Of a stretch of 38,006 bases of DNA, positions 1-38,006 are shown piece after piece. Below the pieces are notes generated by a model that had not been told where the DNA came from, did not search any database, and saw only the letters and a program-made list of their open reading frames with translations. Made by a program: the position numbers and the translations under genes. The DNA comes from a virus (taxonomy: Duplodnaviria > Heunggongvirae > Uroviricota > Caudoviricetes): positions 1-38,006 of the IMG/VR virus record IMGVR_UViG_2778261277_000017, one strand, 5' to 3'. Each line of letters begins with the position of its first letter. Positions within the stretch are counted from its first letter, which is position 1.

Positions 1-1164
1 TTACACATCATTAGTACCTTCCTTATTTTTTGACTGGGACAAATTTGGGACCGATGGGTTCAGAATCGAGTCTATTTGCCGTGCGTGTTCGGTAAGGTGA
101 TTAGGCGCGAGGTGAGCATATCGACGAACCATTTCGATAGACTCCCAGCCACCCATTTCCTGTAACACTGACAACGGGACTCCGGCTTGAACCAGCCAAC
201 TTGCCCAGGTGTGTCTCAAGTCGTGAAATCTGAAATCATCAATACCAGCCCGTCTCAGCGCCGTTTTCCAGGCTGTGTTTGCGTCATACCGCATCTTCCT
301 TACTGTTGGCGCTTTCGTTCCGTCTGGTTTGGTACAGCTTTCCTTGTACACAAATACCCAACGGTGATGATTCCCGATTTGTTTTTTCAATACGCGACAT
401 GCAGTATCATTCAGCGCAACGCCAATTGCGCGGTTTGATTTACTCTCTTCCGGGTTTATCCATGCCACCCGGCGCTGCATATCTATTTGTTGCCATTCAA
501 GGTTGATGATGTTCGAGCGTCTTAAGCCTGTTGCCAGTGCAAATTCAACAACAGACTTTAATGGCTCCGGACATTCATCAATCAGCCTTTGTGCTTCATG
601 GGGCTCCAGCCAGCGGATCCGTTTATTCTTTGGTTGAGGCACTTTAATAATTGGTGCCTTATCCAGCATTTTCCATTCACGCTCTGCGGCTCTTAGTAGG
701 GCCTTTATAAATGAAAGATGCGTAGCCTTCGTTGCAACGGACGCTGGTTTTGGCGTGTATTCTGGAACAGGTTTCCCTTTTTTTCTGCATGCTTCTGCCC
801 TGAGTTTCCAGTTTTCCTCATGACGCCGGTTCGTCATTTTCTGCATTGCTGAATAAATTTTTGATTCAGTAATGTCTCTTAGTTGCATCCCTGCGAAATG
901 TTGAAGCCAGAATCCGATCCGGCTTTTGTCATCGTCCAGTGATTTCTTATGTGCTTTCTCTTCGAGCCACCTGACACACGCTTCCTCAAACGTCATATCA
1001 GGTATTTCACCAAGTTTGCTGACCCGCCATGCTTCAGCCTTTAGCTTGTCATGGAGCTCTGTCGCCTGCCTTTTGTCCTTTGTTCCAAGAGACTGTTTAA
1101 ATCTTTTACCGTTCGGCAATGTGAAACTGGCGTACCATATTTCACTTCTGCGGAAGAGTGACAT
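1..1164 (-). CDS. int: Tyrosine integrase (site-specific recombinase), not lambda-type; resembles e14/phage-21-group integrases from memory
   Basis: 387-aa ORF with C-terminal R..HDLRHT..Y-type catalytic region ([17 protein letters not shown]). Excisionase-like gene overlaps its 5' end. Stop codon is at bases 1-3. Confidence 0.9.
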
Positions 1165-7851: not shown

Positions 7852-8568
<717 letters not shown>

Positions 8569-8905: not shown

Positions 8906-8984
8906 ATCAAATTAAACCACACCTATGGTGTATGCATTTATTTGCATACATTCAATCAATTGTTATCTAAGGAAATACTTACAT

Positions 8985-9263
8985 ATGCAACTTACAAGTA
9001 CTCGCAAGAAAGCGAATGCAATTACAAGCAACATCCTGAATCGAATTGCTGTACGTGGTCAGCGAAAGGTTGCCGACGCGTTAGGGATTAATGAATCGCA
9101 AATTTCGCGATGGAAAGACAGCTTCATCCCAAAAATGGGAATGCTTCTGGCTGTTCTTGAATGGGGTGTTGAAGACGAGGAGTTGGCGGAACTGGCTAAG
9201 CAAGTAGCCAGAATGCTGACAAAAGAAAAAGCCCCGAAGAACGGCGAATTCTTCGAGGCCTGA
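8985..9263 (+). CDS. cII: cII-family transcriptional activator (homologue, not lambda cII itself)
   Basis: ATG at 8985 preceded by AAGGAAA. Translation has the cII-like HTH and tail (GINESQISRWKDSFIPKMGMLLAVLEWGV). Upstream non-coding sequence looks lambda-identical but the coding sequence diverges. Confidence 0.8.
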   Translation: MQLTSTRKKANAITSNILNRIAVRGQRKVADALGINESQISRWKDSFIPKMGMLLAVLEWGVEDEELAELAKQVARMLTKEKAPKNGEFFEA

Positions 9264-30954: not shown

Positions 30955-32022
30955 ATGTCACAGAACTGGATGAGACATTTCGAGCTGCAGCTTGTGGACG
31001 GGAACGGTCAGGGAATTGAGCTAAGTGATTTCAAAGTCACCTTTACGATCGACTGGTTCAACATCAGCAGCGCGTCCCGGGTAGGGACTATCAAAATTTA
31101 TAACCTTTCGGCAGATACTGTGAACCGAATTACCGGGCAGGAGTTTTCGAAAGTGCGGCTGATTGCCGGTTACGACGGTATCGCGCCGGAGGTGGCGGCA
31201 AGCGACGTCGGGACCGTGCGCGAAGTCGACGCGGCAGATGTGGGCCAGAGTGATGGCCGCAACTACGGGCTGATTTTCAGCGGAGAAATTCGCTACTCGG
31301 TCACAGGAAAAGACAGCCCTATTGATTCCTATGTCCTGATTCAGGCAGCAGATACGGATCTGGCATTTGCCACCAGTATAACCTCGCAGACGCTGGCGGC
31401 CGGTTACACGGTCGCAGATGTGAACCGTGCGCTGATGAAAGACTTTGAGGCCAAAGGCGCGACCGAAGGACTGACGCCTGAAATGCCTGCTACCGTATTC
31501 CCTCGAGGGCGGGTGCTGTTCGGCATGACACTGCATCTTATGGATAACGTGGCCGGACAATGTGGCGCAACATGGCAATTTGTGGACGGTCAGCGCCAGA
31601 TGGTGGCGAATAACGAGTATGTTCACGACGCGATTGTGCTCAACAGCGCCACCGGGCTTATCGGCATGCCGCAGCAGACTATCGGCAACGGTGTAAACGT
31701 CCGCGCTCTTATTAATCCGAACATCCGGGTTAACGGGCTTATTCAGCTGGATCAGGCTTCCGTGTACCGCACCGCGCTGTCGAACAATGATATTGCGATG
31801 GCTGGTGGGCAGATCACCGACCAGAACACGGACGGAAATATCACGCTCAGCGGCACCACAGCACAACCTGCCAGCATCGCAACGGATGGCGTTTATATTG
31901 TGCGCGGGATTATGTACACTGGCGATACAAGGGGCCAGGCGTGGTACATGGATATGATGTGCGAAGCGCGTGGCGCGGCGGATCTTCGTTCTGCGTCGTC
32001 TTTACAGCGTGAGGTAGGATAG
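30955..32022 (+). CDS. Baseplate hub-like protein
   Basis: 355-aa ORF following the tape measure-proximal genes. Confidence 0.5.
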   Translation: MSQNWMRHFELQLVDGNGQGIELSDFKVTFTIDWFNISSASRVGTIKIYNLSADTVNRITGQEFSKVRLIAGYDGIAPEVAASDVGTVREVDAADVGQSDGRNYGLIFSGEIRYSVTGKDSPIDSYVLIQAADTDLAFATSITSQTLAAGYTVADVNRALMKDFEAKGATEGLTPEMPATVFPRGRVLFGMTLHLMDNVAGQCGATWQFVDGQRQMVANNEYVHDAIVLNSATGLIGMPQQTIGNGVNVRALINPNIRVNGLIQLDQASVYRTALSNNDIAMAGGQITDQNTDGNITLSGTTAQPASIATDGVYIVRGIMYTGDTRGQAWYMDMMCEARGAADLRSASSLQREVG

Positions 32023-32375
32023 TGAAAAAGTGGATTGTTATCGGACTCTGTTTCCTTCCGGGGTTAGCATTTGCTGCGAATCCTGGCGGTATCACGCTTC
32101 AGTGTGGTGGCTACAAATTAGAGTTGATTCCTGATTCATTGTTCAGGATTAATGGTGAGACAGTTACCTCTCAGAAAATCAAAACGCTCGGCAACGGTAA
32201 TGGAATGAAGGCGGATATGGGTCTTATGCCAGCCAAAGACGGTAACAATTACGCTTTCGAGTTCATTCGTCGCCCTGGTACCGAAACGCGTTTCCTGAAC
32301 GTCCAGCTTCTGCAGAACAGCATGGATGCACCGAAAATCATCGGCTCCTTCCCGTGTAAAAAGGTTGATGGTTAA
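32022..32375 (+). CDS. Small secreted protein with Sec signal peptide, embedded in the baseplate module
   Basis: MKKWIVIGLCFLPGLAFA|ANPGG: n-region, hydrophobic core and AxA cleavage motif; no lipobox Cys. 117 aa. Lower GC than flanking tail genes. Confidence 0.6.
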   Translation: MKKWIVIGLCFLPGLAFAANPGGITLQCGGYKLELIPDSLFRINGETVTSQKIKTLGNGNGMKADMGLMPAKDGNNYAFEFIRRPGTETRFLNVQLLQNSMDAPKIIGSFPCKKVDG

Positions 32376-32515
32376 CCAAAAGTTACATTTCTGCATAGTG
32401 TTGAGTTTGTTCACATTCACTAAATAATGATTTTTTATCGCTTGCTAGGTGGTTGCATGATCACTAAACTTTGCGAACTTTTAGCGCTCAGCTAACTTTG
32501 AATAAGTGGTGTATA

Positions 32516-32530
32516 GTCGTTTAAAACGAC
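32516..32530 (+). promoter_or_regulatory. Palindromic candidate operator overlapping a -10-like TATAGT upstream of the 190-aa gene
   Basis: GTCGTTT-A-AAACGAC perfect 7-bp inverted repeat; TATAGT at 32512-32517; about 14 nt upstream of the AGAGGGA Shine-Dalgarno of the next gene. Confidence 0.4.
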
Positions 32531-32543
32531 AGAGGGATTGGGT

Positions 32544-33116
32544 ATGGCGATTAGCTACGCATTTGCGCTGGCAACAATTACACAACAAATGAATCAGGTT
32601 CAGGAAGCTGTTAACGGTGCTTTCAAACCCCTGATCTCTAATGCTTGTGAACTGCCACAACGATTAGATGCTGAAGAGGTATTTCGTCGTTGTACCGCGA
32701 TTGCTGCACGCGCTCAAGAAATCGAAAATACCGCGAAGGAAGGCATGTCTCATCTCGAAGCTTTTCGAAATGGGAGAATCATTGTTGATGAGCTTCCGGA
32801 AGAGTTTTTATCCCATCTCGAAGGTCTTGCCAAGGCATGCCGAAATGCTAAAGGACATTTAGTGGATATGTTCTCTGAAGCGGAAAGGTCCCCTATGTGG
32901 CAAGGCCATCTGCAAATGTTGCGCCCATTAAAACGCAAATATGTTCGTGCGTTGACCGCCGTCGAGAACACTGCAACTCAGTTGGCCGCTGAAGTTAGGC
33001 AATCGCAGCCTTTCCAGGCTGAACTCTTGTCAGATAATGTTACCCGTGAAGAGGCTATTGAACTGATCTCAACATCGCATAAGATGCTGGGAGCCAACGC
33101 CCCTAAATGGATGTGA
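32544..33116 (+). CDS. Hypothetical 190-aa helical protein, upstream partner of the YafO-like gene (candidate antitoxin/regulator of a novel type)
   Basis: ATG at 32544 with AGAGGGA Shine-Dalgarno; 1-nt gap to the downstream gene. Far larger than, and unlike, the Phd/YefM-type antitoxin YafN that partners YafO in E. coli. Confidence 0.6.
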   Translation: MAISYAFALATITQQMNQVQEAVNGAFKPLISNACELPQRLDAEEVFRRCTAIAARAQEIENTAKEGMSHLEAFRNGRIIVDELPEEFLSHLEGLAKACRNAKGHLVDMFSEAERSPMWQGHLQMLRPLKRKYVRALTAVENTATQLAAEVRQSQPFQAELLSDNVTREEAIELISTSHKMLGANAPKWM

Positions 33117-33117
33117 C

Positions 33118-33534
33118 ATGGCAAAAGTCAGTATCACGGGAGAATTGCGTCATTTAGCTGCAGCACATAAGTATGCTCAAATGCTTGCCGATTATATTTC
33201 AAAGGGTTCCCAGTTCTGGTGTTTTGGTTCGTTAGGCGGTTTTGAACGTAACTATGATGCGATGGCTGCCAACATCAGGAAAATTCACTTAAAGCTACCT
33301 GGCGATAAACCCTGGCCTCCAGAAGCATCTCTGAGTGAACGGACATGTGATAATTTTTTGGTATATGCTCAGCATCTTTATATCGATGAACACTATCAGA
33401 TATTGGCAATCATCAGCCCAAACGCTCATCAGCAAGCTGATTCGATGCTTCCCCGGCTGATAAAATTAGCAGAGGAAACCTTCATAGAACTTCCTCCTGA
33501 TGAACTCGAAAAATTGAAAACCTACGATTCATAA
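33118..33534 (+). CDS. YafO-family toxin-like protein (ribosome-dependent mRNA interferase family), tentative
   Basis: 138-aa ORF. Segments ADYISKG, KIHLKLPGDKPWPP, FLVYAQHLYIDEHYQILAIISPNAH and RLIKLAEETF align with what I recall of E. coli YafO (ADFISYK, HIHLANENNPFPP, HLVYCQGAFDEQAWLLIAILKPEPH, KIGKMAEAF). Recall-based, unverified. Confidence 0.6.
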   Translation: MAKVSITGELRHLAAAHKYAQMLADYISKGSQFWCFGSLGGFERNYDAMAANIRKIHLKLPGDKPWPPEASLSERTCDNFLVYAQHLYIDEHYQILAIISPNAHQQADSMLPRLIKLAEETFIELPPDELEKLKTYDS

Positions 33535-33535
33535 A

Positions 33536-33557
33536 CCCGCCACCCGGCGGGTTTTTT
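33536..33557 (+). terminator. Strong rho-independent terminator closing the cargo cassette
   Basis: CCCGCC-ACCC-GGCGGG hairpin followed by TTTTTT, directly after the stop codon at 33534. Confidence 0.8.
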
Positions 33558-34329: not shown

Positions 34330-34682
34330 TGCGATACAGACGTGAAGACGCCGATGGCGATTACACCTTTGGCAGCGGTGATGACACCTGGCTGATTAAC
34401 TCACCGGAGGCCGTGGCGCAGGCGGTAAAAACGCGATTCGAATTGTGGTATGGGCAATGGTTTCTCGACACCACCGAGGGGACTCCGTGGATCCAGTCCG
34501 TACTCGGTAAGCAGAAGCCGGAAACCTACAACCTGGCGATCCGTAAGCGCATCCTCGAAACGCGGGGCGTTAAATCAATCCTCTCTTTCAATACGACGGT
34601 GGATACCACGACCCGACGTGTCATGTTTTCCGCTGAAATCGACACTCTTTATGGAATAACGACTGTTACATCGGAGGCGTAA
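34329..34682 (+). CDS. Baseplate wedge protein (gpW/gp25-like)
   Basis: 117-aa ORF, ATGA-coupled after the spike gene; size and position typical. Confidence 0.5.
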   Translation: MRYRREDADGDYTFGSGDDTWLINSPEAVAQAVKTRFELWYGQWFLDTTEGTPWIQSVLGKQKPETYNLAIRKRILETRGVKSILSFNTTVDTTTRRVMFSAEIDTLYGITTVTSEA

Positions 34683-35881
34683 TGGCTCTGAACCTTGATT
34701 CTCTCGGTTTATCTGCAAAGGTAACCGCGGAGGGGATCAGTGCGCCTGATTATCAGACGATACTCAGCACCCTGATTAGCTATTTTCAGCAGATTTATGG
34801 CAGTGATGCCTACCTCGAACCGGACAGCAAAGACGGCCAGATGGTGGCTCTGATGGCGCTGGCGATTCATGATGCCAATAATACGGCGATAACTGTCTAC
34901 AACTGTTTTTCACCGGCAACCGGCTATGGGGCTGCACTGACCAGTAACGTGAAAATAAATGGTATTTCACGTAAAGGCGCGACGAACTCTACGGTTGATT
35001 TGCTTCTTACAGGAACTGCCGGAACAACCATCATTAATGGCAGCGTGAAAGACAGTAATAATGTGATATGGCGTTTGCCTGCTTCAGTGGTGGTCGGCGT
35101 GGATGGTACAGTGATGGTGACCGCAACATGTTCCGTCAGTGGTGCAGTGGCGGCGCTGGCTGGAACTATCACTGAAATTAATACGCCAACCCGTGGCTGG
35201 GTTTCGGTAACCAATCCTGCTGCAGCTACTGTAGGCACTCCAGCAGAAACTGATGCGGAGTTACGTATCCGCCAGTCGCAAAGTGTTGCGTTGCCATCAA
35301 TAACCCCATTTGAAGCACTGGATGGTGCCGTTTCTAATGTTACCGGTGTAACCCGCCACAAACTCTATGAAAACGATACTGGTTCGGAGGACGGTAACGG
35401 GTTACCGCCACACTCTGTTGCTGTAATTGTGGATGGCGGTGATGTGACGGATATTGCTCAGGCTATCAGAGGGAATAAAGGTCAGGGGACAGCCACTCAC
35501 GGTACAACATCCGTTACGGTTCCGGATAAATACGGCAATCCCCATGTAATCAAATTCTCGCGTTCCAGTGATGTACCTGTTTATGCCCGGATTAAATTAA
35601 AAGTTTTTACGGGTTATACCTCACAGATAGGGCAACAGATCCAGCAGGCTATTTCCGACTATATCAATAGTCTGATGATTGGTGATTCGGTCCTTTTAAG
35701 TCGCATTTACTCACCGGCGAATCTTGGCGTGGTGAGTGGCGGGAATGCACGCTATTACGATATTCAGGAACTGACGATTGGGAAATCCCCGGGGGCTTTG
35801 TCGTCATCAAACATTGATATCAGATACAACGAATCTGCGTCCTGTACCCCGGAAAATATCGTTATAACGGTGGAGTCATGA
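34682..35881 (+). CDS. Baseplate J-like protein
   Basis: 399-aa ORF following the gpW-like gene, as in P2/Mu-type baseplate clusters. Confidence 0.55.
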   Translation: MALNLDSLGLSAKVTAEGISAPDYQTILSTLISYFQQIYGSDAYLEPDSKDGQMVALMALAIHDANNTAITVYNCFSPATGYGAALTSNVKINGISRKGATNSTVDLLLTGTAGTTIINGSVKDSNNVIWRLPASVVVGVDGTVMVTATCSVSGAVAALAGTITEINTPTRGWVSVTNPAAATVGTPAETDAELRIRQSQSVALPSITPFEALDGAVSNVTGVTRHKLYENDTGSEDGNGLPPHSVAVIVDGGDVTDIAQAIRGNKGQGTATHGTTSVTVPDKYGNPHVIKFSRSSDVPVYARIKLKVFTGYTSQIGQQIQQAISDYINSLMIGDSVLLSRIYSPANLGVVSGGNARYYDIQELTIGKSPGALSSSNIDIRYNESASCTPENIVITVES

Positions 35882-36558
35882 GCAAATACACCGAACTAAT
35901 CACGAACTACCACGCCACCAAACCTAAATTTCTTGCGCATGTTGATCTGATGACCCGGCCACTTATTGATGTTGCGGCTGCCACCAGAGGGCTGATTACT
36001 GCATTTGATATTGACTCTGCGGTTGGTGTGCAACTTGACATTCTTGGATTGTGGATCGGACGTAGCCGTGTTGTCAGCCAGCCTATCTCAGGTGTCTATT
36101 TCAGCTGGGATACCGACGGGCTTGGATATGATCAGGGTGTATGGCAGGGGCCATACGATCCTGATTCCGGATACATGTACCTCAGCGATGAAACTTATCG
36201 TGTCATCCTTAAAGCGAAGATTGCGATTAATAACTGGGATGGACGGAATGATTCGCTTCCGGCAATTCTTGACGCGGCGACAGCAGGATCCGGACTGCGA
36301 ATGCAGATAGTCGATAACCAGGACATGACGATATCGGTCTGGGTCTTTCCTGATACTGATATTTCAGATGTATCGCGTGAGTTAATTGCTGCAATTAAAC
36401 AGGGATATCTCACAGTAAAAGCCGCCGGTGTGTGGGCGGGTGGCATTGAAACACCTTCGGTGGAAACCCCATCGGAAGGTTCAAAATTTTTTGGTTTTGA
36501 TATGGATAACGAATTCATCAGTGGTTTTGATGTAGGGGCATGGGGAGTATTACTCTGA
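35878..36558 (+). CDS. Tail protein (gpI-like)
   Basis: 226-aa ORF, ATGA-coupled, immediately upstream of the tail fibre gene. Confidence 0.5.
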
Positions 36559-37253
36559 TGGCGAAAAATGACTTTAAAGCGTTTGCAACGGATCGAAATG
36601 CCAATGTTATGTCGCAGGAGGAATGGGAAGCGTTGCCTGCGCTTTTATCCGGATTTACAGCAGGGAAAGCATCCAGTGCGCAAGTCAATAAGGTTATTCG
36701 GCAGGCCAGCTTTATTGCTGCAGCTCTGGCCCAGTTTGTAAGTGACAAAACGCAACGGGATGTGCTTGATAATGGTGATCTGCCCGGTTTTGTTGAATTG
36801 CTGGGATCGGGGTTTGCTGTTGAATACCTGAGCCGCAAGAATCCGTTTGGTGATATCAAATCGGATGGCACGGTGAAAACGGCTCTCGAAAACCTTGGTT
36901 TGGGAGAAGCGGCGAAAAGGGATGTGGGCACAGGAGATAATCAGATACCGGATATGGGAGCATTCGCTTCTGGTTCGGGATGGTTCAGGCTACCAGGTGG
37001 ATATATTGTTCAGTTTGGCACTTTTGCAGGAAACACGACCCGCTTTATCAGTGGACACTTCCCTATACCATTCCCTAATCAGCCGATGGTTTCAGTCAGT
37101 GTTATGTCTGATGCCGTTCAGTCAGACCCGTCGATTCCTGCCCCGCAGGTTTTGTCTGTAAATTTTGAACATATCAGTAATTCAGCGTGGCGTGTGGCAA
37201 CCAGTGATATCTCACAGCAATACAGATTCAGTTATATTTCGATAGGACGGTAG
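36558..37253 (+). CDS. Tail fibre protein, with a constant N-terminal part and a C-terminal part lying in a putative invertible segment
   Basis: N-terminus [29 protein letters not shown]... is typical of side tail fibre proteins; followed by a Tfa gene; contains the hix-like site at 36883-36908. Confidence 0.75.
36883..36908. other. Candidate Hin/Gin/Pin/Cin-family DNA invertase crossover site (hix/gix-like, 26 bp)
   Basis: CTCTCGAAAACC-TT-GGTTTGGGAGAA: 12-bp imperfect inverted half-sites around a 2-bp core, close to the recalled hixL/gixL pattern (TTnTCnAAAACC nn GGTTTnGAnAA). Lies inside the tail fibre gene. Confidence 0.55.
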
Positions 37254-37255
37254 AA

Positions 37256-37696
37256 ATGCAGAAATATATTTTCAGTGCCGATAAAAATGCGTTTTTCCCT
37301 GTGGAGCTTAAAATCGCTTATCAGGAATCCGGCGAATGGCCCGATGATGGAATCGAAATTGACGACACTGTTGCTGCCGAATTTATGAAGGAAGCACCAG
37401 AAGGAAAATACAGAGGTGTCATCGACGGAATGCCTGCATGGATTGATATTCCACCGCCAACTCATGAGGAACAAATTGCCGCAGCCGAACTGAAAAAGCA
37501 GCAATTGATTAATCAGGTCAACGAATACATAAACAGTAAGCAATGGCCTGGTAAAGCGGCGATTGGTCGCCTGAAAGGTGAGGAACTGGTGCAATATAAT
37601 TTGTGGCTGGATTATCTGGACGCACTGGAACTGGTCGATACTTCCGGTGCGCCAGATATTGAATGGCCTACGCCTCCGGCAGTTCAGGCCAGATGA
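37256..37696 (+). CDS. tfa: Tail fibre assembly protein (Tfa)
   Basis: 146-aa ORF with conserved Tfa N-terminus (MQKYIFSADKNAFFPVELKIAYQESGEWPDDGIEIDD) and C-terminal ...DIEWPTPPAVQ. Confidence 0.85.
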   Translation: MQKYIFSADKNAFFPVELKIAYQESGEWPDDGIEIDDTVAAEFMKEAPEGKYRGVIDGMPAWIDIPPPTHEEQIAAAELKKQQLINQVNEYINSKQWPGKAAIGRLKGEELVQYNLWLDYLDALELVDTSGAPDIEWPTPPAVQAR

Positions 37697-38006
37697 CATC
37701 CGGTGCGGTGCTGGTATCTGTTGCCGTCACCGCGTCAATATAATCCAGCACAGCGTTAAGTCGGGTGTTTTCTGGCTGCGTCAGCTTCCGCCCGGCCTGT
37801 AATTTCAGTTGAATCAGACCGATGGAAGCCATTGCAGCATCAATCAGCGACTGGCGCTTTACTTCTGCCGCGTCTAGTGCGGCGCTATGCTGTGCCTCGG
37901 TATCCGTCACCCATTTCTCACTATCCCATTTATCGTATGGCGTTAATGGGGCGATAGTGGTTGTATTTTCAGGGTAATCACCCGGAACTGTGATTTCTTT
38001 GGTATC
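37668..38006 (-). CDS. Second, oppositely oriented tail fibre assembly protein (alternative Tfa of an invertible segment); 5' end beyond the window
   Basis: Minus-strand frame open to the window edge, ending ...LDYIDAVTATDTSTAPDVIWPELPEA, parallel to the plus-strand Tfa C-terminus; the two 3' ends overlap by 29 nt. Confidence 0.7.
   Translation of the reverse strand, partial: DTKEITVPGDYPENTTTIAPLTPYDKWDSEKWVTDTEAQHSAALDAAEVKRQSLIDAAMASIGLIQLKLQAGRKLTQPENTRLNAVLDYIDAVTATDTSTAPDVIWPELPEA

Follow-up and report, generated by a model that had tools for sequence, protein, structure and literature searches.

The tail-fibre gene at the right-hand end of the 38,006-nucleotide stretch of DNA analysed here (the window) contains a 26-bp sequence that resembles a recombination crossover site, which raises the question of whether the fibre encoded by this gene is the only one available to its prophage or one of two alternatives exchanged by inversion of a DNA segment. 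Invertible tail-fibre segments driven by Pin, Gin or Cin have been described in textbooks since the 1980s. For both the G-segment of Mu (Gin) and the C-segment of P1 (Cin), a serine invertase is encoded beside the segment and inverted 26-bp sites lie inside the fibre gene; a constant fibre N-terminus is followed by one or the other of two C-termini, and the pair of assembly genes is convergent. The locus described here is, with high probability, the left half of a tail-fibre switch with two states, of the Pin (serine invertase) type and homologous to the P-segment of e14, and the system is one that is already known (Pin/Gin/Cin/Hin family).

The window is a prophage. Its first base lies at the stop codon of the integrase gene (1-1164, minus strand), and terminase, tail sheath, baseplate hub and spike genes follow along it. 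The host element is apparently a complete, contractile-tailed E. coli prophage of about 40 kb. The features at the end of the tail module, together with those projected from a relative, are collected in Table 1.

Table 1. Features of the tail-fibre locus (window coordinates unless L001 is named)
Feature	Position	Strand	Remarks
Baseplate_J gene	34682-35881		Pfam domain
DUF2612 wedge protein gene	35878-36558		directly upstream of the fibre gene
Tail-fibre gene, 231 aa	36558-37253	+	from the ORF list
Constant N-terminal fibre part, aa 1-112	36558-36894	+	outside the invertible segment
26-bp crossover site (pix/gix/hix type)	36883-36908	+	CTCTCGAAAACC-TT-GGTTTGGGAGAA
Crossover site, outer half	36883-36894	+	CTCTCGAAAACC
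Crossover site, core (2 bp)	36895-36896	+	TT
Crossover site, inner half	36897-36908	+	GGTTTGGGAGAA
Cassette A, variable C-terminal fibre part	36897-37253	+	Gp53-like_C receptor-binding tip
TfaA, 146 aa, tail-fibre assembly chaperone of cassette A	37256-37696	+	Caudo_TAP, E value 9e-34
TfaB, C-terminal 112 aa of a ~200-aa chaperone for cassette B	37668-38006	-	Caudo_TAP, E value 1e-25
Inverted right-hand site in L001	8945-8970	+	TTCTCCCAAACC-AA-CGTTTAAGAAAA; corresponds to window ~38744
pinE in L001	9026-9580		Resolvase + HTH_7

Between the baseplate hub and spike genes, three small cargo-like reading frames occupy positions 32022-33534 on the plus strand. They encode a protein of 117 aa with a signal-peptide-like N-terminus (phrog_3443), one of 192 aa without a Pfam family (phrog_35514), and one of 138 aa belonging to the YafO_toxin family (PF13957, E value 4e-17). 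The same slot is filled by different genes in four otherwise collinear relatives (L001, L002, L005 and L016) and, because its content changes from one relative to the next, it resembles a hotspot for variable cargo within the tail module. The three genes possibly include a toxin-antitoxin pair; a PADLOC search matched nothing among them.

The start of the fibre gene overlaps the stop codon of the DUF2612 gene through the sequence ATGA, and the two genes are translationally coupled. The tail-fibre families of PHROG match only residues 1-120 of the fibre, the matches being split at about residue 120, and the Pfam family Gp53-like_C (PF21882, E value 3e-8) is found at residues 144-231. In every relative that shares the backbone, the constant part aligns collinearly with 97-99% identity, regardless of how the segment is oriented. 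In the present assembly cassette A is joined in frame to this constant part and is therefore in the ON state. Further downstream, TfaA and TfaB are convergent with a tail-to-tail overlap of 29 bp, and TfaB leaves the window at its end. A plus-strand Tfa met by a minus-strand Tfa that runs off the window had been described in an earlier note made from the sequence; the description is accurate, and both proteins belong to Caudo_TAP. A search of NCBIfam returned no hits for the fibre or the Tfa proteins. Promoter-like sites are not in excess within the segment, a count that would fit expression from the upstream late genes. The segment also contains an 18-nt inverted repeat (37606-37623 and 37732-37749, 89% complementary). 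The convergent tfa genes code on opposite strands for similar C-terminal peptides (LDYLDA and LDYIDA); the repeat, which arises from this likeness, probably just reflects homology and is not a functional element.

The 26-bp site encodes fibre residues A109-E117 (ALENLGLGE), with the exchange point at codon L113. The earlier note had correctly placed such a site inside the fibre reading frame, but its account of 12-bp inverted half-sites was overstated, since the halves are complementary at only 9 of 12 positions. The window holds 24 positions with this degree of half-complementarity, compared with 15 +/- 4 in shuffled sequences, and the dyad symmetry of the site, taken alone, is no higher than the chance level. 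A chance palindrome was nevertheless rejected as an explanation: the symmetry is not significant, yet all 26 bases are shared with the left crossover site in stfP of the K-12 element e14 (L014 4779-4804). Of the 16 bases in the inverted repeat of e14, which is reported to recombine experimentally (PMC12529663), 15 are present in the site, and it fits the family consensus TTCTCC(C)AAACC-AA-(G/C)GTTTnnGAnAn, which was built on 34 sites from the window and related loci. Homology with other phages and prophages starts or stops at window positions 36889-36909, i.e., at the site. A pattern scan of the 38,006-nt window revealed no second copy of the site at up to 3 mismatches, with 0 expected by chance. 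A site-like sequence at 33511-33536 (AAATTGAAAACCTACGATTCATAAAC), retrieved with a loose pattern, does not have the conserved TTCTCC/GAGAA arms and was taken as a chance match.

The far end of the segment was read from relatives. Seven show both segment ends, namely five E. coli chromosomes (L001, L002, L003, L016 and L017) and two phage records (L005 and L006). The complete chromosomes of strains PEC148 (L001) and APEC-O117H42 (L002) are collinear with the window, its last 1.6 kb matching them at 98.0-98.8% identity to within 6 nt of its end. Both encode a full TfaB, of 200 aa (L001 7869-8471), beyond which the minus strand encodes a C-terminal fragment of a fibre, containing a phage Tail Collar domain. 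This is followed by the right-hand site, whose plus-strand sequence in the two chromosomes is TTCTCCCAAACC-AA-CGTTTA(A/T)GAAAA; its core is AA and that of the left-hand site TT, so the two sites are inverted. Further inverted right-hand sites are located at L002 8969-8994, L005 7906-7931 and L016 6486-6511, and an inverted second site is present in all seven relatives. In PEC148 and APEC-O117H42 pinE starts 56-80 bp past the right-hand site. The relatives' PinE contains both PF00239 (E value 6e-52) and PF02796 (E value 4e-14), shares 95% identity with PinE of K-12, and matches the solved structures of the Gin invertase (3uj3 and 4m6f) with E values of about 5e-93 to 1e-92. A full-length invertase of 182-188 aa adjoins an intact right-hand site in six of the seven. 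When these positions are projected on the window, the distance from its end is about 740 bp for the right-hand site and about 820 bp for pin, and the segment would span about 1.86 kb. The second inverted site and serine invertase that had been predicted just outside the window are thus found in the seven relatives, although the window's own contig stops short of that region.

The first 200 bp of pin are nearly identical to those of K-12 pinE in L001, L002, L016 and L017 and contain several loose Fis-like motifs; a simple motif scan of these four 5' ends yielded no convincing pair of Fis sites at the expected spacing. The unfused Collar-domain fragment of PEC148 has an ATG of its own 25 nt outside the right-hand site (8971-8995, minus strand; MPVSRNLCIFLNVGLGEGS...). 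Owing to this position the fragment is an open reading frame even when it is OFF, as is stfE in e14. In phage vB_EcoM-611R5 (L005) the invertase is annotated at 104 aa only (7986-8300) and abuts an unrelated minus-strand gene, which suggests that the switch may be decaying in some members of this same-backbone group.

The end of the window is that of a draft contig. NLFZ01000027.1 (GCA_002225765.1; L018), identified by an exact-protein search, matches the window with 0 mismatches over 5449 nt as its source contig, and it stops 2 nt past window position 38006 (L018 5449-5451). The window ends, and TfaB is cut, because this contig itself ends there, which places any right-hand site and invertase of its own genome beyond the reach of the sequence. 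A second draft contig with an identical fibre also breaks inside tfaB (L019 3122-3227). Sequences of tfa are present in a median of 2 and a maximum of 8 copies per E. coli genome and, because of this repetition, a short-read assembly break at the tfa repeat is the likely cause of the contig end. Exact-pattern scans for the DNA past the window end gave zero matches in genome contigs and in metagenome contigs, and the same scan of IMG/VR retrieved related, non-identical contigs only. A prophage call that ends at this break inside the segment is short by about 1.4 kb.

Both orientations of the segment occur naturally on one prophage backbone. In vB_EcoM-611R5, an induced phage, the sequence corresponding to window 36400-36909 is collinear at 97.5% identity, and positions 7924-6865, next to the invertase, match window 36890-37949 in reverse, likewise at 97.5%. 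The segment is also flipped in an IMG/VR contig (L013). In the phage, in this contig and in the strain pair that follows, the breakpoints lie inside the site. Two O55:H7 strains, CB9615 and DEC5B (L017 compared with L016), carry the prophage beside yfhH. Outside the sites the two are collinear at 98.6-99.1% identity, and between them all matching blocks run in reverse; since the segments differ in content too (86-95% identity), this pair does not represent a pure inversion.

To obtain the flipped junction, the constant part of the window up to the core was joined computationally to the reverse complement of the far cassette of PEC148. The product reads in frame through the junction (...ALENLGLGE followed directly by GSALPVG...) to a stop codon, and gives a Collar-domain fibre of 271 aa followed by TfaB. 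A count over complete E. coli genomes gave 16 with the junction as it stands in the window and 47 with the computed flipped junction, the latter over at least 80% of its length; this compares genomes, not cells of one culture.

The closest known system is the P-segment of e14 (stfP-tfaP / tfaE-stfE, with PinE), to which the left crossover site is identical. The order of elements is also the same, i.e., a constant fibre N-terminus, a site, a Gp53-like tip, a Tfa, a convergent Tfa, an alternative tip, a site and pin. The genes tfaP and tfaE overlap by 29 bp, exactly as TfaA and TfaB do; TfaB has 89% identity to TfaE and TfaA 56% to TfaP, and the e14 segment measures 1797 bp compared with about 1.86 kb in the relatives of the window. 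The resemblance to the Mu G-segment and the e14 P-segment that the earlier note had proposed is borne out, down to the 26/26 identity with the e14 site. The e14 segment is reported to have the inverted repeats TTGGTTTGGGAGAAGG and CCTTCTCCCAAACCAA at its flanks and inverts experimentally under PinE, PinQ and PinR (PMC12529663), and phase variation of the locus in culture has been seen in sequencing reads (PMC4272514).

The window is, however, not e14 itself. Residues 1-91 of its fibre show no relationship to StfP, and for the Gp53-like tip identity is only about 35% over a local alignment of residues 92-230 that includes the conserved junction block. The gene upstream of the fibre encodes the DUF2612 wedge protein; e14, a defective element, has YmfQ (DUF2313) at this position, and its DNA matches only two short stretches of the window (36831-36909 and 37592-38000). 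As both the backbone and the fibre N-terminus are unlike those of e14, the window belongs to another prophage, one that carries a P-segment homologous to that of e14.

Comparison with other invertible systems delimits the type of switch. The Mu G-segment and the P1 C-segment share their architecture with the locus and its relatives, the likeness being one of gene layout and of the match to invertase structures; the Mu segment is longer (about 3 kb), and Mu fibre proteins greatly exceed in length the window fibre of 231 aa, whose constant part comprises 112 aa. In flagellar phase variation of Salmonella, which depends on the H-segment, Hin flips a promoter and turns transcription on or off, whereas here coding sequence is swapped by in-frame fusion. 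The Min shufflon of plasmid p15B and the multi-cassette switches described for P2-like prophages (PMC4272514) resemble the locus in their family of sites and in their tail-fibre C-terminal cassettes. In such shufflons the sites number more than two and many arrangements arise, and a multi-site shufflon of the Min type was rejected: the window has one site (at up to 3 mismatches) and each relative exactly two, which indicates a simple binary switch.

In the proposed mechanism, the constant part of the fibre (aa 1-112) would be expressed with the baseplate genes and joined at the 26-bp site to one of two C-terminal receptor-binding cassettes, each followed by its own assembly chaperone, with the two cassettes facing each other in a segment of about 1.9 kb. 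By analogy with the Gin/Hin/Pin family, a PinE-like invertase, whose gene would lie immediately past the far end of the segment, would bring the two inverted sites together, cleave each at its 2-bp core and rejoin the strands after rotation, presumably assisted by a Fis-bound enhancer. A flip would fuse the other cassette and its chaperone to the constant part and bring them to expression. The state that is ON in the present assembly is that of the Gp53-like tip with TfaA; the other state, found in the relatives, has the Collar-domain tip with TfaB. On the same analogy with known members of the family, a population of lysogens would be expected to release phage with two host ranges or receptor specificities.

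Because the second site and the invertase lie outside the window and the contig ends there, the switch of the window's own lysogen could be incomplete. The segment might be locked, the invertase or the right-hand site having been lost or become defective, in which case the fibre would be fixed with its Gp53-like tip unless the Pin of another prophage acted in trans. The downstream part is indeed out of view, an invertase of just 104 aa is annotated in the same-backbone phage vB_EcoM-611R5, and stfE of K-12 e14 is annotated as a pseudogene. We consider a locked segment improbable nonetheless, given that nearly all the relatives with both ends retain a full-length invertase adjoining an intact right-hand site, that the left-hand site of the window is intact and identical to a known functional site, and that E. 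coli commonly has Pin paralogues able to act in trans (PMC12529663).

It might also be argued that the 26-bp site is nothing but a short conserved coding motif at which general homologous recombination exchanges fibre tips between phages, without any site-specific inversion. Such a mosaic boundary would account for the block of about 80 bp (window 36831-36909) that is 96% identical to e14 in an otherwise unrelated N-terminus, and for a nearly identical half-cassette that is shared by three backbones with its breakpoint at the site. It would not account for the presence of the segment in both orientations on one backbone, with its ends exactly at two inverted sites and a serine invertase gene alongside, and the identical e14 site does invert experimentally (PMC12529663). 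Inversion and cassette exchange can coexist, and we regard exchange alone as a very remote alternative.

The half-cassette in question, which consists of the Gp53-like tip, TfaA and the 3' part of TfaB (1.1 kb, window 36889-38006), is found with 99.6% identity on P2-like (L003 3200-4317) and e14-like (L004 3200-4317) prophages. It thus occurs on three unrelated backbones, that of the window included, and its homology begins inside the crossover site. In both of these prophages the Gp53-like tip is the unfused (OFF) copy, beside the recombinase. StfE2 of e14 has been reported to be a decoy that blocks adsorption of other phages, an anti-phage role being attributed to such a chimeric K-12 product (PMC12529663). 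We speculate, as a rather doubtful extension of the switch, that the site might serve as a portable junction through which unrelated co-resident prophages swap whole receptor-binding cassettes with the invertase acting in trans, and that lysogens might express the unfused cassette on the pin side as a decoy against adsorption of other phages.

The finding has little value as a discovery; the pinE and tfa genes of near-identical prophages have already been annotated by RefSeq. Its practical value is for annotation. In draft prophage calls that are broken inside tfaB, the alternative fibre cassette is missing, together with the right-hand site and pin. The 231-aa fibre is to be read as one of two alternative products, and both tips should be considered in host-range predictions for the prophage of the window.
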